This document shows positions 38,071 through 45,840 of a DNA stretch of 64,000 nucleotides, one piece after another. The DNA is from Escherichia phage JLBYU08, in sequence record OK272482.1. One strand, 5' to 3'. A program made the position numbers and the translations under genes. The notes under the pieces are model-generated. The model worked only from the letters and a program-made list of their open reading frames with translations. It ran no database searches and was not told the origin of the DNA. The stretch's first letter is position 1, and each line of letters starts with the position of its first letter.

Positions 38071-38100
38071 CCAAATAGAAAATCCCCGCCGAAGCGGGGG
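38071..38100 (-). terminator. rho-independent terminator
   Basis: Minus strand: CCCCGC-TTCG-GCGGGG hairpin followed by ATTTTCTATTT. Confidence 0.6.
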
Positions 38101-38503: not shown

Positions 38504-39688
38504 TTAAGCTTTAGCCAAAATGGCGCTAAACTCTTCACCAAACTCTTTTACAATCTTCATCAGGTTTGGGTATGCTTTGATCAGCTGAGCAACAATCTTG
38601 TCACGCCCTTTACCGATAAGCAAGGCATTTCCTAAGGCATTAGGTTTCATCATCGCCATAAAGACTGAGAATACAAAATCTCGGTTCTCGTCCTTGAAGT
38701 TTTCCCAAAGGAAATCGAGGAAGTTTGCCACGCAGCTGACAAGATCTTCGTCTGAGATACTTGCATTTTCCATCATATTACGAATAGCGATACAACCTTC
38801 AGATCCAAGAATCCACAAAATGTCTGGCTGCTTAGGACCTACGTATTCTTTGCAGCCACCTGCCATAATCCGACCGATTTCCGGTAAATTGCGTTTCTTG
38901 GTGTGGTATGTCCAGATCTCTACCGCTGCAGTGTGACCAATAGCACCTTGCAGAAGAACACGGGCCATAGCGTCAGAAATAATACCGCTGTCAAAATCGT
39001 GCAAGATGTCAGATGCAGCAACCCAAGATCGTGGTGTGGCAAAAGATGGACAATTAATCTCAGCCATAGCCTCATAATTATCAATAGCTGATGGAACTCT
39101 TTTCAGATACCCAATTACAGAGGAGTGAACCCCGTTGAGGAATGCGTAGTCCTCAATAAACACCTCTGCATTGCTTGTAACCTCTACAATGATAAAACGG
39201 TTAGCCAGAGGGGCTTCGAGCGCCGAAAGAACCGCACCATCTGTAGAACGGTTACCCGCAGCCACAAAAACAGAACCCTTAGGGAATGCATAGGTGCCGC
39301 ACTTGTGGTCAAGCATAATTTGCATTGCAACCTTTTGCAGGTAGTTATCTGCATGAGTGAGCTCATCCAGAAAGATAATTCCGCTCCAGTCAGGATCCGC
39401 AGGCCAAAATTCTGGAATTGCAAACACTGTACGTGTAGTTCCATCCGCTTCTACAGGGATAGGTAGCCCAGATAAGTCGGCAGGATCTTTATCTGACAGT
39501 CGCACGTCAACAAGGTTGTCATCTCGCTCACCGAACATATTATCAGCGATCTGCTTCATCACCTGGCTTTTACCCACACCCATTGGTCCCAAAATTAGGA
39601 CAGATCGGCTATGACGTTGGGCAAACTGAATAATAGCTGGCAACTCACGGACAGTGATTTGACCACTTTCGAATACGTTTCTTGACAT
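38504..39688 (-). CDS. MoxR-like AAA+ ATPase, 394 aa
   Basis: Walker A GPMGVGKS, Walker B IFLDEL, MoxR/AAA_5-like spacing; TAGAGGA SD. Confidence 0.8.
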   Translation of the reverse strand: MSRNVFESGQITVRELPAIIQFAQRHSRSVLILGPMGVGKSQVMKQIADNMFGERDDNLVDVRLSDKDPADLSGLPIPVEADGTTRTVFAIPEFWPADPDWSGIIFLDELTHADNYLQKVAMQIMLDHKCGTYAFPKGSVFVAAGNRSTDGAVLSALEAPLANRFIIVEVTSNAEVFIEDYAFLNGVHSSVIGYLKRVPSAIDNYEAMAEINCPSFATPRSWVAASDILHDFDSGIISDAMARVLLQGAIGHTAAVEIWTYHTKKRNLPEIGRIMAGGCKEYVGPKQPDILWILGSEGCIAIRNMMENASISDEDLVSCVANFLDFLWENFKDENRDFVFSVFMAMMKPNALGNALLIGKGRDKIVAQLIKAYPNLMKIVKEFGEEFSAILAKA

Positions 39689-39957
39689 TAGTAAAAGTCC
39701 TCTACTTGTGTGTAAGTGTTTTCAAAGTTTTCCAAAACAGATATCACATCGAATCTGTCAATATCATACGTGACTCTCCAGTTGTACGCAACCCTTTCTG
39801 CTGTTGCCTCTTCTGGCGCTAGTCGTCTGCTGGCATAAAAGAGTGTTGGAGTACACTTTCTTGCTTGCCCTCTAACTTTCCCATAATAATATCTGTGAAT
39901 ATCTTTGTCAAAATTTAACTCTTTTTCTGCACGAAGTTCATATTGCTGGTATAACAT
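39688..39957 (-). CDS. hypothetical protein, 89 aa
   Basis: ORF with AAGGAG SD. Confidence 0.6.
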   Translation of the reverse strand: MLYQQYELRAEKELNFDKDIHRYYYGKVRGQARKCTPTLFYASRRLAPEEATAERVAYNWRVTYDIDRFDVISVLENFENTYTQVEDFY

Positions 39958-40001
39958 CTCTACTACTCCTTAAGCAGCATCCTTGCCGCCATTCCTGCCC
40001 A

Positions 40002-40382
40002 CTAAAATGCAGTCCGAATCCAGACAAGGTTCTTATCTGCCCAATCATAGAGGCAAGTCATTGCACTATTGAATTGCTCACACGGAGGATAATCTTCTTC
40101 CATCTGGCGCATAGCAGAGCCTTGTGGGTAAAGCTCCCGTGCTGCAAACCACGCGTCGTAGTCATCAACGGTGTCGAAGTAGTATACAACATCCTCTAAC
40201 TCAGGATCGAACTTTGAACTATCAGGATCCAGTTGTTCAGGGAACTTGGAGCGTAACTTGCCAGCCACAATACTTGCCAACTCGCTAACATGCTTATTGT
40301 CCCACTCCACTAGCTTCCCGTCTTCAGTGATGCGTCCTAACCACTGATCATGAAGGTCAACTGTTGTCTTCCACTGAGCCAT
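40002..40382 (-). CDS. hypothetical protein, 126 aa, acidic
   Basis: ORF with GAGGTGGA SD. Confidence 0.6.
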   Translation of the reverse strand: MAQWKTTVDLHDQWLGRITEDGKLVEWDNKHVSELASIVAGKLRSKFPEQLDPDSSKFDPELEDVVYYFDTVDDYDAWFAARELYPQGSAMRQMEEDYPPCEQFNSAMTCLYDWADKNLVWIRTAF

Positions 40383-40384
40383 TA

Positions 40385-40642
40385 TCAGTCCACCTCTTCT
40401 TCTCGTTGTAGTTCAAGATACCCGTAGGTCTGGACATCTTGAAGGGTGTGGAACTCCCCCTCTGCCGCTAAGGCACGAACAACTTGGCACAAAACCTTAT
40501 GAGGAACTTCATCCAAACCTAGATTCAGTGCAGGAAACACCTTATCTAAGTCAACAAAATAAACGAACTGTAGCTCACCAGCTTCAAAAGGTGTATCTTC
40601 AATAAACATCTTCTCGGCATTAGTCAAGATCTGCACTTTCAT
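40385..40642 (-). CDS. hypothetical protein, 85 aa
   Basis: ORF with GAAGAGGGGG SD; TAATGA coupling. Confidence 0.6.
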   Translation of the reverse strand: MKVQILTNAEKMFIEDTPFEAGELQFVYFVDLDKVFPALNLGLDEVPHKVLCQVVRALAAEGEFHTLQDVQTYGYLELQREEEVD

Positions 40643-40998
40643 TATTCTACCCCCTCTTCTTTTTCTTCGGCATTAGTTTCATGGCTACCCCACTCGGGAG
40701 TTTCCACCTCGATAGTAAACTCACGCACTACACGGTAATTGCCCATGAAGCGCTCTACTTCGTCAAGGCTTATGGAGAGGCCATTGGCAACCAGGTCTGC
40801 AGCACCCTCTTCTACCAGGTAGTCCAGATTGGCTTCCAGAGCCTCAGGTTCAAACCCTGTCAATGCAATCAGATAACCTTCCCCTTCATCAGGGAGGACA
40901 ATACAGCCCAATTGATTTTCTTTAAAAAGGCAGTGACCATCATTATTGATTGGGTGTTCATTGCAGTAAATAGCTGCACGATAAGTAACTTTAGACAT
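40642..40998 (-). CDS. hypothetical acidic protein, about 118 aa, starting MSKVTYRA (start lies in the 29-bp inverted repeat)
   Basis: AAGGAG SD 9 nt before ATG; first 8 codons identical at nucleotide level to an internal restart of the rightward gene at 42842. Confidence 0.55.
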   Translation of the reverse strand: MSKVTYRAAIYCNEHPINNDGHCLFKENQLGCIVLPDEGEGYLIALTGFEPEALEANLDYLVEEGAADLVANGLSISLDEVERFMGNYRVVREFTIEVETPEWGSHETNAEEKEEGVE

Positions 40999-41003
40999 CG
41001 GTA
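40975..41003. repeat. 29-bp perfect inverted repeat, left copy (TACCGATGTCTAAAGTTACTTATCGTGCA read on minus strand)
   Basis: Exact reverse complement of 42837-42865. Confidence 0.85.
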
Positions 41004-41011
41004 AGGTCTCC

Positions 41012-41290
41012 TTAGGCAATTGTCATTTTACATTCTTGAAATTTTAACACAAGACGGTGATTGTGTCTAGTGTCTAAAAAGATTTTTTCAACCATCAGGC
41101 ACACGGTATAACCGTCCATCTTGTTGACAACAAAATCTCCAGGATGAGGGAGGATGTCTCCCGGATTGGGGAAACATAGTCCACTCAGAAAGGCATCGTC
41201 AGTGGTGGACTTAATAGATTTCCACACACTGTCTGCCTGAACATGTTCACCGACGTAATATACATTACCACATGCCTTCATCATAGTCAA
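41012..41290 (-). CDS. hypothetical protein, 92 aa
   Basis: ORF with GAGGG SD; inside the inverted-repeat-bounded segment. Confidence 0.5.
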   Translation of the reverse strand: MTMMKACGNVYYVGEHVQADSVWKSIKSTTDDAFLSGLCFPNPGDILPHPGDFVVNKMDGYTVCLMVEKIFLDTRHNHRLVLKFQECKMTIA

Positions 41291-42186
41291 ACCCTCGCAT
41301 AAATTAAACTTGTATCAGTATACTTCTTTAATGGGTAAATATCCTGTCCATAGATGCAATCATTAAACACCTCATCTACCCAAAGGCTACACTTATATCC
41401 CATCATTTCTAAAACACCCATCTCTTCTTCTGTAAACTTATCACCGCTCTTGCAAGATGTCAATACCTCATTCTGAACTCTTGCTACCTCGAAGCGGTTA
41501 TTGGCAATATCGCTATTGGCGATCAAATACTCACCTAGAGGGTGTGCGGCATTAAAGATGCACAGTGGACGGCTGACGTAATAGTCTCCGGGTGTATAAA
41601 AATTGTTGAGGTCTTTCACTAGAACATTCTTATCAGTCACTTCATTTATAACATCATGCATATCGCACATCTTTATATGTTTGAGGATTCCATCCCCCAT
41701 CACAAAATAAAAACTTGCTGAGACACTTTCGGCATAGATCTTACTAGATCCGTTGTAGTTGTATTTTACTCGGATGCTAACGGGGGTTTTTCCTGTCGCG
41801 TTAGCCATCATCCAAAGAAATGGCAGCTCATACTTCTCCTCTGAGGAAACAAAAGGTGAGGTAGCCAGAGATCGAAAACCTCCAGAGAAGTTGAAAGTTA
41901 CAGAACCGCTCCGGCGGTATGATACCGCGTATTCTACTTTTATATCGACGTACCCATTGGAATAGGTGTGTCCTTCATTATCTAAATATGTCCACTTATC
42001 AGACCCAGATACCAATCTACGCTCGATAACCTTCATCACTACAGGAATTAGTGGGTTGGTACAAACCGCTTTTGAAGTAGCTTTATCATCTAAAGCCTCG
42101 TAAATTGCAGAAAGGATGTCCCCAGCTGAAAGATTGGTTGTTATGTCCTGTTTCCACCGCGTACTAAAACTGTTAAGATTTGCCAT
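41287..42186 (-). CDS. hypothetical protein, 299 aa
   Basis: ORF with TAGGAGCA SD; inside the inverted-repeat-bounded segment. Confidence 0.6.
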   Translation of the reverse strand: MANLNSFSTRWKQDITTNLSAGDILSAIYEALDDKATSKAVCTNPLIPVVMKVIERRLVSGSDKWTYLDNEGHTYSNGYVDIKVEYAVSYRRSGSVTFNFSGGFRSLATSPFVSSEEKYELPFLWMMANATGKTPVSIRVKYNYNGSSKIYAESVSASFYFVMGDGILKHIKMCDMHDVINEVTDKNVLVKDLNNFYTPGDYYVSRPLCIFNAAHPLGEYLIANSDIANNRFEVARVQNEVLTSCKSGDKFTEEEMGVLEMMGYKCSLWVDEVFNDCIYGQDIYPLKKYTDTSLIYARV

Positions 42187-42265
42187 AAGTAAGTGCTCCT
42201 ATGTTAGTTTTCTTTCGAATGGGTGCACTATATTGTGGAGTTAGAGTAAAGTCAACACGTTTTTG

Positions 42266-43306
42266 ATGTTGACATCTGTTGAGACAATTGATACGATTTC
42301 TTCACTTACAGAGCACGAGAGACGACTCATGAATCTTGAAAAATATTATACACCAGAAGAGTTAGAGCGCTTGCTCAAAAAATATAGACGCAAACAGAAT
42401 AACGCACGGAAACGAGATATAGAGTTCGACCTGTCATGGGAAGAATACCTCCTATTTGGTAAAAAACTTTTAGGAGATGGAGTATGCGACTATACCCTTA
42501 TACCTTTTGACATGCACACAGATGAAAACGGGCTGGGAAATCCTTTCTACCCATCTCTGGAGCGGATAGATGATGAAGGTCCTTATGCGGTTGATAACTG
42601 TTGTGTGGTGGGATTGAGATGCAACTCTCTAAAGGACTGTCTGGTAGATAAAAAGACTGCAGTCTTGATTAAAGACGAAACTGATCGAAAAATTGTCCAG
42701 CAGATGATGCTCCACCTGAGCGAAGAGCGTATGGAGAAATTGAAAGGTGATTATACTTTTGAAGATTTCATCTTACAATATGGAACGGAAGAGGATAAAC
42801 TAGCACTCTTTGACGAAGAAGAGGAGGAAGATATGCTACCGATGTCTAAAGTTACTTATCGTGCACCCAAGAAGCACATTTCCGACATTGTAAACGAGCC
42901 TATCACAGAAGAGATTGAAGAAATGACGCAACAGGTGCATGAAGAGGAAAAAGAGACTCAGGAGGTCGAAGAGGAGCTTACAGAAGAGGTTCCTGCACTA
43001 CCTGATGATGTTGAGATTGCCAAAGCTTACACTTTCTATTGTCAAACGTTCTACGATGTAGGTATGAAAGTTGATCTGTCGTTCAGCCAATTTAAGAGTT
43101 CGTATATTCGCAAATGCTGTGCTTTAACTGGTGAACGTCTTGGAGCTGGACTTAAACCTCTGTTGGTGACCGACTGGAATAAAGGTTTCACTAAAGGAAA
43201 CTTTATGGTAGTATCTCCAATTATGGAGAAAGCTATGACAGATCTTATGAAGACCACCCGCATGACAATGACCGAGTTGGCAGGTATTTTCAAACACGTT
43301 AAATAA
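42266..43306 (+). CDS. ORF with two tandem copies of a Cys/Asp-rich domain, 346 aa; possibly two in-frame genes, second starting at MSKVTYRA (42842)
   Basis: Both halves carry C-x-(Y/A)-T...(R/T)(I/D)D...G(Y/F)..GN(c/f).V motif; GAGGAGG SD before internal ATGs; no clear SD at annotated start. Confidence 0.5.
   Translation: MLTSVETIDTISSLTEHERRLMNLEKYYTPEELERLLKKYRRKQNNARKRDIEFDLSWEEYLLFGKKLLGDGVCDYTLIPFDMHTDENGLGNPFYPSLERIDDEGPYAVDNCCVVGLRCNSLKDCLVDKKTAVLIKDETDRKIVQQMMLHLSEERMEKLKGDYTFEDFILQYGTEEDKLALFDEEEEEDMLPMSKVTYRAPKKHISDIVNEPITEEIEEMTQQVHEEEKETQEVEEELTEEVPALPDDVEIAKAYTFYCQTFYDVGMKVDLSFSQFKSSYIRKCCALTGERLGAGLKPLLVTDWNKGFTKGNFMVVSPIMEKAMTDLMKTTRMTMTELAGIFKHVK
42837..42865. repeat. 29-bp perfect inverted repeat, right copy
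   Basis: TACCGATGTCTAAAGTTACTTATCGTGCA on plus strand. Confidence 0.85.
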
Positions 43307-43310
43307 TAAC

Positions 43311-43335
43311 AGGGGCCAATGGCCCCTTCTGGAGT
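43311..43335 (+). terminator. possible weak terminator hairpin
   Basis: GGGGCC-AAT-GGCCCC followed by TTCTGGAGTTTT; short loop and interrupted T-run. Confidence 0.35.
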
Positions 43336-43339
43336 TTTA

Positions 43340-44800
43340 ATGGATAGCAGAAGTTCAGAAATCATTGCCTCGCAGAAAGATGATGCCCTGAGAATGTTGC
43401 AGGCTGCACGTATGTATCTCCTTGAAAAGCTGCCGTTCTATGGCACACTACTGTCAGGGTTGCAGTTCGTAGAAAACCACACATGGTGCTCCACCATGGC
43501 AACCGACCATAAACGCATCTATTACAGTCCTGAGTTCATTATGGGATTGGCTGATGAACGCAAGGCTATTCTTAAGGCTTCTCTAACTGACGAGCAGTTT
43601 GAGATGGCTGAAGTTTTCTATTCCCCAAAATCTGTGAAAGAGGTGGCCTTCCTTCTGTCACATGAGGTGGGGCATATTATCTGTGATCACCTAGTCCGTG
43701 GTAAAAGCTTTGAGCCGGAACTGTTCAATATTGCTTGTGATCACGTTATCAACACAGGCCTTGTGGTTGACTTTAGCAAACCTCCTTGTGTTTTCTTCCC
43801 GAAGGGGAAAAGCACTACGTTCGTGAAAGGTAAGCCTTTTGGCTTCTTAGCCAGCTGCTACTGCGACATGAAGTTTCATGGATGGATTGCTGAGAACGTT
43901 TATGCAGTTCTTGATAAGCAAAGAGATCAGAATAACGGTAAAAGTAAGAACGGTAAAGGTGAGAACTCTCAAAGTGATAAGCGACAAACCGATGATCACA
44001 TGAGTGGGAACGGTGGCACCAGTGATAATCTTGGAAAGGCTATGGGGTATGATCAGCCACAACCTGTAATCAGCCAATCTGATAAAGATCAGGCCATGCA
44101 GGACTCTGGTGATATGCTGGAGGCAGCAATGCAAGCGTCCGGAGGCCGTTGCCCTGAGGCGGTGCGTGAGTTTGTCAAGAACAGAGGTAAACCTGTAATC
44201 AACTATATAGACATCATTAAGCAACGCATGTTGTCTAAAAGAAAGGCCGAACTGACCTACAGAAAACCTGGTCGCCGATCTGGGTCTTTGACCAGCACAA
44301 TGCGAAAAGTTGGGGCTATAAACAAGAACCAGCACGTTATTGTTCCTGGTCGTAATCCGGAAAACACTATAGATATTGTGGTGGCTTTAGACGTTTCTGG
44401 CTCGATCTCTCAAAGAACTTTAAAGAAAATGTTCAATGAAATCACCGGATTGTGCAATCTGTATAAAGAGTTTAAGGTTACAATGTTCTGTTGGTCAACT
44501 GAGGTTGGAGAGGTTAAAGTATACACTCGCGGCAACATAGACGAGATGATCAACTATGAGGTCCACTCAACATGGGGCACAACAGCTGCTTGCGTGTTCG
44601 AGCATCTGGATGCCAACATACCTAATGCAAAAGATGTCATCGTCCTGACCGACCTATACTTTGAGCATAACTTTGAACAAAAGGTTGTTGACAACAAGTG
44701 GAAAAAGTACGATACTCTATGGGTCCTCACTGAGGGGTATAATAAAAATTATATCCCGAGCTTTGGGAAAACTGTGGAATTAATCGAGTACGCTAAGTAA
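43340..44800 (+). CDS. putative metallopeptidase (HExxH) plus von Willebrand A domain protein, DUF2201-like, about 486 aa
   Basis: HEVGHIICDH zinc-binding motif in N-terminal half; MIDAS-like VALDVSGSIS in C-terminal half; GGAG SD before internal ATG. Confidence 0.7.
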   Translation: MDSRSSEIIASQKDDALRMLQAARMYLLEKLPFYGTLLSGLQFVENHTWCSTMATDHKRIYYSPEFIMGLADERKAILKASLTDEQFEMAEVFYSPKSVKEVAFLLSHEVGHIICDHLVRGKSFEPELFNIACDHVINTGLVVDFSKPPCVFFPKGKSTTFVKGKPFGFLASCYCDMKFHGWIAENVYAVLDKQRDQNNGKSKNGKGENSQSDKRQTDDHMSGNGGTSDNLGKAMGYDQPQPVISQSDKDQAMQDSGDMLEAAMQASGGRCPEAVREFVKNRGKPVINYIDIIKQRMLSKRKAELTYRKPGRRSGSLTSTMRKVGAINKNQHVIVPGRNPENTIDIVVALDVSGSISQRTLKKMFNEITGLCNLYKEFKVTMFCWSTEVGEVKVYTRGNIDEMINYEVHSTWGTTAACVFEHLDANIPNAKDVIVLTDLYFEHNFEQKVVDNKWKKYDTLWVLTEGYNKNYIPSFGKTVELIEYAK

Positions 44801-44815
44801 GAGAGGAGGTTATTT

Positions 44816-45079
44816 ATGGCAACAGAGTTAAAATTTGCATCAAACCGTAAAACTAAGAAGTATCTGTCCTCAGTAGCTCCAGGCACTGTGGTGATGTTTG
44901 TTGATGAACTTGGGGATGTGAATACAGCACTTGTTGTAAAATCACATCCTGCAAACATATATGTTGGGGTATTTGACCTGTTCAGAAAGGTGTTTGTAGA
45001 ACTACCTCACAGTTTGGTTGTTACAGAAATGGATGCCTGCATAGAAATTCTTGGCGAAGTTATGGTGGAGGAACAATAA
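44816..45079 (+). CDS. small protein, 87 aa; paralogue 1 of a four-gene tandem array
   Basis: Shared pattern MAT..kF.s..k.K.....GtVV...D.......mvvk...fdl...L...kVtE.d..I.iLGE; GAGGAGG SD. Confidence 0.6.
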   Translation: MATELKFASNRKTKKYLSSVAPGTVVMFVDELGDVNTALVVKSHPANIYVGVFDLFRKVFVELPHSLVVTEMDACIEILGEVMVEEQ

Positions 45080-45342
45080 TGGCTACCAGCATTGTATTCA
45101 ATTCTAAGGTGAAGAACAAAAAGCGTGCAGACAGCTTTCCGTGTGGGACCGTGGTAAGTTGCGACGGAGACGGCATTCAAAACATAGTTATGATTGTCAA
45201 AACAGGAGAACATTGTGTGTGGGGGTTCGATTTAGAAAATAATGAGTTGTACGATCTGCCACCAAACATGAAAGTTACAGAGCTTGACACCAAAATTACC
45301 ATCCTTGGAGAGACAAGCTATTCAAAAGAAGGAGGAGAATAA
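45079..45342 (+). CDS. small protein, 87 aa; paralogue 2
   Basis: TAATG coupling; same length and motif pattern. Confidence 0.6.
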   Translation: MATSIVFNSKVKNKKRADSFPCGTVVSCDGDGIQNIVMIVKTGEHCVWGFDLENNELYDLPPNMKVTELDTKITILGETSYSKEGGE

Positions 45343-45605
45343 TGACCACAAAAATCACTATCGCAGAACCGAAAGCTAACACTCAACCTATCGAAAAGTT
45401 TAAGTGCGGTGAGGTGGTAACATTCACACCAGATAATGAAGATGCTAAGATTTTCGCAATGGTCACAGCTGAGTGGATGTGTGACAACACCACACAGGTT
45501 CTGCGTTTTGACACCTATCTTACCGATGAAATCAGGAACGACAAGATTGTGACTGGTGTGGATACTGAGATTGTTTTCTACAAGAGCTTTTTAGAGGGTT
45601 TCTGA
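45342..45605 (+). CDS. small protein, 87 aa; paralogue 3
   Basis: TAATG coupling; same length and motif pattern. Confidence 0.6.
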   Translation: MTTKITIAEPKANTQPIEKFKCGEVVTFTPDNEDAKIFAMVTAEWMCDNTTQVLRFDTYLTDEIRNDKIVTGVDTEIVFYKSFLEGF

Positions 45606-45606
45606 T

Positions 45607-45840
45607 ATGGCAAAAATTCGTAAATTATCTAGCAATCAGGTTGTGAAAGACTTTGAATCTGGAGAGATTCTTTATGTTCGTGATGCAGATGACGAAGGTG
45701 AAGATCTCGTTATGTTGGTGGGGCACGCTGAGGACGGATGCATCCAAGCTGTTTTTCTTGAAACAGCTATGGTGCACTGGATAGAGCTGGACCTGAAAGC
45801 ACGAAAACCTAAAGCAGAAATCCTGATTTACGAAGATTAA
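45607..45840 (+). CDS. small protein, 77 aa; divergent paralogue 4
   Basis: Coupled start; similar size; weaker motif match. Confidence 0.5.
   Translation: MAKIRKLSSNQVVKDFESGEILYVRDADDEGEDLVMLVGHAEDGCIQAVFLETAMVHWIELDLKARKPKAEILIYED

Follow-up and report, generated by a model that had tools for sequence, protein, structure and literature searches.

The closest described relatives of the gene pair reported here are gp24 and gp25 of phage N4 (Schitoviridae), which belong to the same two protein families (LIT1 'N4 gp24-like', 2e-16, and 'N4 gp25-like', 5e-14) and are two among the 14 genes that form the core of N4-like phages (PMC4193335). Iyer et al. (2021, Viruses 13:63; PMC7824862) described an identical architecture, a MoxR ATPase with a vWA cochaperone fused to an N-terminal metallopeptidase, for jumbo phages of group 2.2, and phage MoxR–vWA pairs have been on record since at least 2007 (PMC2147016). 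We analyzed such a pair in a stretch of 64,000 nucleotides from Escherichia phage JLBYU08 (OK272482.1), hereafter the window. Here, a MoxR-class AAA+ ATPase gene and the gene of its vWA-metallopeptidase partner are separated by 3,651 nt (39688 to 43340), occupy opposite strands and are divergently transcribed, in agreement with the distance of about 3.6 kb given by the original prediction, which was made from the letters of the DNA. The pair is real and already known from GenBank annotation, the N4-like core genes and the jumbo-phage survey (PMC7824862). New here are the near-universal colinearity of the two genes elsewhere, the dating of their split to within the Vequintavirinae and the exclusion of an inverted repeat as its cause.

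We compared the window pair with each of the known systems. In N4-like phages, the genes are adjacent and co-oriented, unlike those of the window, and the identity is ~22–28%; the proteins of the rV5 clade are set apart from those of N4 by additional inserts, which fall in the peptidase domain, ahead of the vWA core and in the C-terminal region of the ATPase. For the group 2.2 jumbo phages, the rV5-like split was not treated by Iyer et al. (2021); jumbo phages among the tblastn matches for both proteins are E. coli CRJP21, EJP2 and JP4, Serratia BF and Pectobacterium CBB. The best matches of solved structure for both window proteins are NorQ–NorD and CbbQ–CbbO, which share the AAA+ motif set, the helix-2 insert and a partner built of an N-domain, a disordered linker and a vWA domain with a MIDAS, or metal-ion-dependent adhesion site (PMC9976466, PMC13036017). 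However, the N-domains of NorD and CbbO are not peptidases, unlike the predicted peptidase domain of the window partner, the sequence identity is 10–20%, their clients (cNOR and Rubisco) are absent here, and the phage ATPase has ~120 extra C-terminal helical residues compared with NorQ and CbbQ. Bacterial operons of AAA_5 and DUF2201_N/DUF2201 genes, as in Sulfurivermis fontis, have the same two Pfam architectures, adjacent and co-oriented; they are chromosomal and apparently housekeeping, lie by thioredoxin, Hsp15 and Lon genes, and show ~23–32% identity to the window proteins. In two genera, these operons have the same upstream genes (MCP, S4/Hsp15-like and thioredoxin; loci L009–L011), and in Sulfurivermis ferrochelatase and Lon genes lie downstream; a proteostasis or redox role in housekeeping is hinted at for the cellular homologues. 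The p618 (MoxR) and p892 (vWA) proteins of Acidianus two-tailed virus (ATV) form a viral MoxR–vWA pair that is likened to the present one by description only (PMC7159879, PMC7824862); the pair belongs to an archaeal virus, lacks a peptidase domain, is virion-associated and is implicated in extracellular tail growth. Regarding the vWA-MoxR-VMAP ternary conflict and defense systems, no PADLOC match above noise was found and no third gene is conserved across the lineages examined; NCBIfam and PADLOC scans of both proteins and two neighbors returned only noise.

Linkage of the two genes was surveyed by running hidden Markov models of both families over 92 fetched loci and the window. The vWA gene lies at most 300 nt downstream of the ATPase gene in 71 loci and on the same strand but 517–1,420 nt away in 3, and the arrangement is divergent in 5, all of which are rV5-like. 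No vWA gene is seen in the remaining 14 loci, all on truncated contigs with under 1.5 kb downstream of the ATPase gene. Further contigs of metagenome-assembled genomes (MAGs) from diverse phyla have the two genes adjacent in 9/9 cases. Outside the divergent loci, the vWA gene is found downstream and on the same strand in 83 of the 83 loci with enough sequence, the gap being less than 300 nt in 80 of them; among these loci are N4-like podoviruses, large uncultured phages, MAG contigs and Gammaproteobacterial chromosomes. Co-occurrence and synteny in relatives, which had been proposed as a check of the pairing, are therefore borne out. Independent lineages (bacteria, N4-likes, Certrevirus and uncultured large phages) agree on the colinearity. 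For example, uncultured phages of ~34% identity (150–350 kb contigs) carry the vWA gene 70–90 nt downstream of the ATPase gene, with genes of a 5′–3′ exonuclease and ThyA as neighbors, and the gap is 37 nt in a 35%-identity relative. An N4-like podovirus of Sulfitobacter carries the same ATPase (hhalign 99.8%, 1.6e-28) in the gene adjacent to and upstream of its vWA gene. An AAA_5 ATPase gene directly upstream of a DUF2201 gene on the chromosomes of Sulfurivermis and other Gammaproteobacteria likewise agrees with the earlier statement that DUF2201 proteins in bacteria normally sit beside a MoxR ATPase.

The two families also travel together at the level of whole records. The ATPase is found in 812 of 50,697 phage records and its partner in 616, and the genus counts of the two are almost identical; ~10 co-occurrences would be expected if they were independent. 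The pairing is not due to chance. The two proteins diverge in parallel, with ATPase/partner identities of 53/43%, 42/38% and 35/33%. The correlation of their divergence (Pearson 0.99, Spearman 0.21) is given no weight beyond this, because few points drive the Pearson value.

The 7 kb around the gene pair show 99.7% identity to the Escherichia phages Gotham, LL12, Murica, nimi and CarlMeissner (Vequintavirus murica), and 121 rV5-like records match the pair region at ≥90% identity; judged by sequence, the stretch is assigned to a Vequintavirus, an rV5-like E. coli phage. The adjacent, co-oriented operon form is absent from the window, where seven minus-strand genes and one plus-strand gene separate the two, although the two-gene system itself is present. 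The divergent split is confined to part of the Vequintavirinae, namely Vequintavirus, Henunavirus (pEp_SNUABM_01 has a layout like the window) and two relatives of ~53% identity. In a relative of 54% identity, the genes are divergent and 4.3 kb apart; in one of 42% identity, they share a strand with four small genes between them; and in Certrevirus DU_PP_I, also of the Vequintavirinae, the order is colinear, with the ATPase gene, two small open reading frames (ORFs) and then the vWA gene. Comparison of gene orders places both genes of loci L006 and L007 in the rightward unit, across from Hydrolase_2 and PIF1; the ATPase gene of the window, L008 and L014 shares its strand with Hydrolase_2, rIIA, rIIB and PIF1, and the vWA gene is on the other strand.

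Since every outgroup is colinear, the split is most parsimoniously read as derived, from a single, old inversion within the Vequintavirinae. Such an inversion would have spanned the bidirectional early promoter, with one breakpoint between the ATPase and vWA genes, and would have transferred the ATPase gene to the leftward early/replication unit, which holds rIIA/B, helicase and DNA polymerase, and left the vWA gene in the rightward one. No split-lineage genome examined has lost either gene, and the catalytic and helix-2-insert residues are invariant. That a near-invariant operon was split without loss or decay of either gene shows that co-transcription is dispensable. The split also offers easy genetics in tractable E. 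coli phages (BASEL Bas48-type and EdH4), since either gene can be silenced with no polar effect on its partner.

The window ATPase is supported as a MoxR-class protein by its relatives, its motifs, the family profile and its model. A database search returned 5,711 relatives, and those at ~34% identity (E ~1e-44) carry Pfam AAA_3 (MoxR family), AAA_5 and sometimes bpMoxR. Within an alignment of 28 family members, AAA_5 or AAA_3 is matched by 10 (AAA_5, 2.4e-9; AAA_3, 1.2e-8) and bpMoxR, weakly, by 5. The Walker A and Walker B motifs, to which the original prediction had pointed, are present, and the full AAA+ set, including sensor 1, the arginine finger and sensor 2, is invariant in this alignment and was verified on the DNA (Table 1). 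The helix-2-insert region holds 9 of the 39 invariant columns, and its DVRLS..P.D..G motif resembles the MoxR signature. With a single sequence, the PDB search gave only Clp/p97 matches at the level of the P-loop, and the family profile was required; its top match is the AAA ring of midasin (2e-10). The AlphaFold model (pLDDT, the predicted local distance difference test, 85; pTM, the predicted TM-score, 0.78) shows a predicted β-hairpin inserted after helix 2 and a short hairpin (129–134) ahead of the sensor-1 strand. In Foldseek, its top ranks are NorQ, including NorQ–NorD complexes, and CbbQ (E 4e-8 to 1e-7; TM(target) 0.63–0.67). A placement with the CobS/CobT or ChlI/ChlD chelatases is not supported, since neither the window proteins nor the 28 family members have CobS_N/CobT or Mg-chelatase Pfam matches; likewise, the profile searches did not assign the ATPase to CobS/CobT, the family that had been named as a possible alternative.

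The partner protein matches PF13203 DUF2201_N (4.6e-28; 99 bits, cutoff 23.2) and then, from the N- to the C-terminus, PF09967 DUF2201 (4.5e-11; 43.4 bits, cutoff 26.4). Together with intact residues in both sites, this upholds the proposed combination of an HExxH N-terminal region with a MIDAS-containing vWA domain of DUF2201-like architecture. Among 26 sequences from phages and bacteria, His108, Glu109, His112, His117, Asp134, Asp351, Ser353, Ser355, Thr414 and Asp438 are invariant. The model (pLDDT 80) has a confident N-terminal domain, a disordered linker of biased composition and a compact vWA domain. The profile of the N-terminal domain weakly matches the minigluzincin MJ1213 (0.004) and the M48 proteases BepA and HtpX, and its members have weak Pfam matches to M48 (7/14) and SprT-like (5/14) families, as well as to DUF5700 and 'PhageMetallopep'. 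Because of these matches to minigluzincin, M48 and SprT-like proteins, we assign the domain, on sequence grounds, to the zincin-type peptidases, with its catalytic Glu intact. In the model, strands 305–308 and 335–338 flank the RPxRR segment, which is a candidate for the pore-binding 'finger' that we infer by comparison with NorD. The family is very large: grouping at 50% identity yields 13,417 clusters (E≤1e-30), almost all of them full-length matches of 370–520 residues.

Two further observations concern this gene and its product. The ORF opens at ATG 43319 (493 residues), and the start given by GenBank and by the original prediction is at 43340 (486 residues). The latter is preferable, because a GGAG ribosome-binding site (43331–43334) lies 5 nt ahead of it, whereas ATG 43319 sits within the loop of a GC-rich hairpin, AGGGGCCAATGGCCCCT (43311–43327). 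This hairpin is located between the stop codon of the upstream Srd-like gene and the ribosome-binding site and start of the vWA gene, scores as terminator-like on the minus strand, and might be an attenuator, a processing site or an mRNA-stabilizing element. The rV5/Certrevirus clade has clade-wide insertions in the vWA protein (~35–50 residues before the HExxH helix, a block after DHVIN and ~14 residues after RPxRR) as well as in the ATPase (~25 residues in the C-terminal helical region); these might form a co-evolved interface.

Table 1. Positions of the two genes, their motifs and domains, and the neighboring elements in the window
Feature	Position	Strand	Remarks
MoxR-class AAA+ ATPase gene	38504..39688	(-)	394 aa; N4 gp24 family; phrog_1297 at 2e-110 ('ATPase')
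Walker A GPMGVGKS	39566..39589	(-)	G37, G39, K40, S41 invariant in 28 sequences
Helix-2-insert region, residues 61-99, DVRLSDKDPADLSG...	39392..39508	(-)	β-hairpin in model; strands 75-81 and 84-90 between β2 and Walker B strand
Walker B IIFLDE	39362..39379	(-)	Translation and 28-sequence alignment
Sensor 1 AAGNRS	39245..39262	(-)	N146, R147 invariant
Arginine finger PLANRFI	39191..39211	(-)	R164 invariant
Sensor 2 ATPRSWV	39020..39040	(-)	R220 invariant
vWA-metallopeptidase gene	43340..44800	(+)	486 aa; N4 gp25 family; phrog_1314 at 7e-123
N-terminal zincin-type metallopeptidase domain (predicted), residues 1-200	43340..43939	(+)	Model pLDDT >90
Zinc-site motif LSHEVGHIICDHL	43655..43693	(+)	HEVGH at 43661-43675; H108, E109, H112, H117 invariant
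D134 and N138, downstream of zinc-site motif	43727-43756	(+)	D134 invariant
Variable Gly/Asp/Gln-rich linker, residues ~201-290	43940..44209	(+)	pLDDT <50 for 201-227; gappy alignment
RPxRR-type motif LTYRKPGRRSG	44252..44284	(+)	R312, R313 nearly invariant; directly before vWA core
vWA domain, complete MIDAS	44357..44797	(+)	DVSGS 44390-44404, T414 44579-44581, D438 44651-44653
Back-to-back sigma70-like promoters of the two divergent units (predicted)	42227..42297	both	Consensus scan, each 10/12
Palindrome GTCAACACGTTTTTGATGTTGAC	42251-42273	.	Arms hold -35 boxes of both predicted promoters
Seven intervening leftward genes	39688..42186	(-)	89, 126, 85, 118, 92, 299 aa, etc.
Srd-like / 'anti-sigma factor' gene	42329..43306	(+)	PHROG matches and annotation; directly upstream of vWA gene
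Terminator-like hairpin	38084..38099	(-)	Downstream of ATPase gene and next small gene; annotated terminator in Gotham

The two divergent units of the window are separated by a gap of 76 bp that holds both predicted promoters, TTGACT-17-TATAGT on the minus strand and TTGACA-17-TACGAT on the plus strand, and both sites are annotated as promoters in phage Gotham. Since both units start within ~45 bp at these predicted sigma70-like promoters, the two genes are probably still co-expressed early in the window phage. The palindrome that holds both -35 boxes is a candidate site at which a dimeric regulator could act on both units at once. A sigma70-like promoter (11/12) lies immediately upstream of the two adjacent genes in L007. 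In the window, the leftward unit extends past the ATPase gene to rIIA/B, helicase, methyltransferase, primase and DNA polymerase genes; the rightward unit has 13 small genes besides the Srd-like and vWA genes, and its end lies convergently against the late tail-fiber module. The promoters, the neighboring genes and the middle transcription of N4 gp24/gp25 (PMC4193335) point to early or middle expression of the pair, together with replication and takeover genes. Regarding the genes between the two, the seven leftward ones are not conserved with the pair beyond close relatives, and only the 126-residue gene has a homologue beside the ATPase gene in L008 and L014. The Srd-like gene has a homologue (39% identity) upstream of the vWA gene in L008 and L014 and is absent in L006 and L007, and is thus found in the split lineage only.

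How would such a pair work? In the NorQ–NorD system, a 'finger' of the vWA domain plugs the pore of the ATPase hexamer and contacts the helix-2 insert (PMC13036017), the MIDAS binds acidic residues of the target, and ATP-driven rotation stretches the linker between the vWA and N-terminal domains; the authors suggest that this mode is general for MoxR/vWA pairs (PMC9976466, PMC13036017). The window pair has the same motif set and layout, but its N-terminal domain is a predicted zincin peptidase, so that the conserved two-gene module, a MoxR-class ATPase with a zincin-linker-vWA partner, probably serves adaptor-targeted, ATP-driven remodeling plus cleavage of an early or middle-phase, non-structural target of host or phage. 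In such a mechanism, the ATPase hexamer would dock one vWA protein, and the MIDAS metal would bind an acidic residue of the target protein. ATP hydrolysis would then rotate the vWA domain, stretch the linker and remodel the target, which the tethered zincin domain would finally cut. It is the gene neighborhoods that point to an early or middle-phase, non-structural protein as the target. If the mechanism is as proposed, the pair would constitute a two-component, adaptor-targeted, ATP-dependent protease of a design unlike Lon, FtsH or Clp. The family, which numbers no fewer than 13,000 clusters (50% identity), belongs to the core of the Schitoviridae, occurs on bacterial chromosomes as well, and unites a MoxR motor with a MIDAS adaptor and a predicted zincin peptidase.

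Several points weigh against this proposal. Complex formation, hexamerization, the vWA 'finger' and peptidase activity are inferred by analogy, and the characterized MoxR–vWA pairs are remodeling chaperones or metal-insertion factors (PMC13036017), not proteases. On its own, the window ATPase stays below every Pfam gathering threshold (AAA_5, 16.7 bits; cutoff 22). Many loci of the survey come from one clade of uncultured phages and are not independent, and some are duplicates. The promoters are consensus predictions, and their conservation is partial, with only that of the vWA side present in L008. The lost adjacency could mean looser functional coupling in the split lineage. Lastly, our search of the literature on phages and bacteria found no functional study of the gp24/gp25-type family, which accords with the earlier remark that the function of the pair in phages is not established. 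Likewise, no paper joining rV5 and MoxR was found, and DUF2201 appeared in incidental mentions only; EdH4 was tested for rIIA/B and the capsid gene alone in the CRISPRi-ART paper and serves solely as a challenge phage in the Hachiman paper.

Other roles for the pair were weighed against the same evidence. For the jumbo phages of group 2.2, whose architecture is the same, Iyer et al. (2021) proposed a virion assembly chaperone-protease, which would fold and proteolytically process structural proteins such as those of the tail or tail fiber; they drew the analogy to ATV p618/p892 (PMC7824862). A MoxR–vWA precedent in the tail development of an archaeal virus is mentioned by way of citation in PMC7159879, and the rightward unit with the vWA gene does end beside the tail-fiber module in this genome. 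Yet the gene context here lends the proposal no support and it fits poorly: in none of the lineages examined is either gene part of a late or structural operon, and the neighbors are rIIA/B, helicase and polymerase genes, or those of the 5′–3′ exonuclease and ThyA, or those of RNAP2, dUTPase and ThyX. The predicted promoters are sigma70-like and early, N4 gp24/25 are middle rather than late transcripts and are outside the listed virion proteins (PMC4193335), and the same operon occurs on bacterial chromosomes in non-prophage contexts by thioredoxin, Hsp15 and Lon genes, so we regard an assembly role as unlikely. That both proteins are structurally nearest to NorQ and NorD in the model comparisons, share the NorD-type layout of N-domain, linker and vWA domain, recur beside enzymes of nucleotide metabolism and belong to a class whose characterized pairs all remodel or insert metals (PMC13036017) would suit a chaperone that serves maturation or cofactor insertion alone, in the manner of NorQD, CbbQO or CoxDE. 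Such a chaperone would switch on a metal-dependent enzyme of phage or host, and its HExxH domain would bind metal or the target and not act as a protease. Zinc binding alone, however, would not need the catalytic Glu, which is invariant in the 26 diverse sequences; the N-terminal domain resembles active zincin proteases (minigluzincin, M48 and SprT), and no single candidate client enzyme is common to N4-like, rV5-like and jumbo phages. We hold a chaperone without cleavage to be quite improbable.

The split itself raises the question of whether the two proteins have become functionally independent in rV5-like phages, the ATPase acting alone or with another partner and the separation reflecting uncoupling. 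The opposite strands and the distance of 3.65 kb set these phages apart from nearly all relatives, and the split lineage has new conserved neighbors, the Srd-like gene upstream of the vWA gene and the 126-residue gene upstream of the ATPase gene. Such independence is nevertheless very hard to reconcile with the retention of both genes and of their invariant catalytic and helix-2-insert residues in the split-lineage genomes examined, with the parallel divergence of the proteins and with the predicted bidirectional promoter region at which both units start; in addition, the surroundings of the two genes show no further vWA or MoxR gene. A more specific form of remodeling plus cleavage can also be conceived. 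The module may be an early, ATP-driven protease whose MIDAS picks a specific host protein, for example a defense, stress-response or transcription component, for destruction, which is a speculative version to which we give little credence at present. If it were true, the pair would represent a new class of phage effector for host takeover or counter-defense, common to N4-like, rV5-like and jumbo phages, and its placement in the Vequintavirinae by the Srd-like anti-sigma gene, behind a bidirectional early promoter, would amount to integration into the takeover program.

The interval between the two genes also contains a perfect 29-nt inverted repeat (40975–41003 and 42837–42865). The original prediction had the pair split by several small genes and by the segment bounded by this repeat; both are real, but the repeat spans only part of the interval and is unrelated to the split. 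It was rejected both as the cause of the split and as an invertible switch: the flipped junction is found in 0/118 related genomes, rV5_ev168 (91.6% identity) has the left arm only, the right site reading PMQDFKNFMADRA, and the split is common to relatives of 44–54% identity. Because no flipped isomer occurs in these 118 relatives and the right arm is missing in the relative of 91.6% identity, the repeat looks like a recent, short templated patch of gene-conversion type in the lineage of V. murica. Both copies encode MSKVTYRA, one where the small gene 40642–40998 (minus strand) begins and the other inside the Srd-like gene (about residues 193–201), and recombination across the repeat would give an in-frame domain swap. 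The copy in the Srd-like gene is preceded by a Shine–Dalgarno-like run, GAGGAGGAAG, and an internal translation start within this gene is possible.

Existing annotation of the two genes is uneven. The ATPase gene is labeled 'MoxR ATPase' in rV5 itself, LL12 and CarlMeissner, and the GenBank labels of the partner are 'putative metallopeptidase' and 'VWA-like domain-containing protein'. In PHROG, however, phrog_1314 is labeled 'HNH endonuclease', and therefore the vWA-peptidase is miscalled an HNH endonuclease in many RefSeq phage records; in one Salmonella phage record, it is miscalled 'DNA repair ATPase'. Annotation errors are thus spreading for this family. Similarly, phrog_13164, the 89-residue gene at 39688–39957, is labeled 'ATPase', apparently on the sole ground that it adjoins the ATPase gene. 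Among the records that match the region, 16 (MG0656xx) are named 'Campylobacter phage', with Campylobacter jejuni as the host, and show 92–99.8% identity to E. coli rV5-like phages over it, and these host labels look doubtful. Directly downstream of the vWA gene, at 44816–45840 on the plus strand, there is a tandem array of small paralogous genes composed of three ORFs of exactly 87 residues and one of 77 residues; the 87-residue ORFs are joined by ATGA overlaps, and the first two are 38% identical, the others showing weaker similarity.

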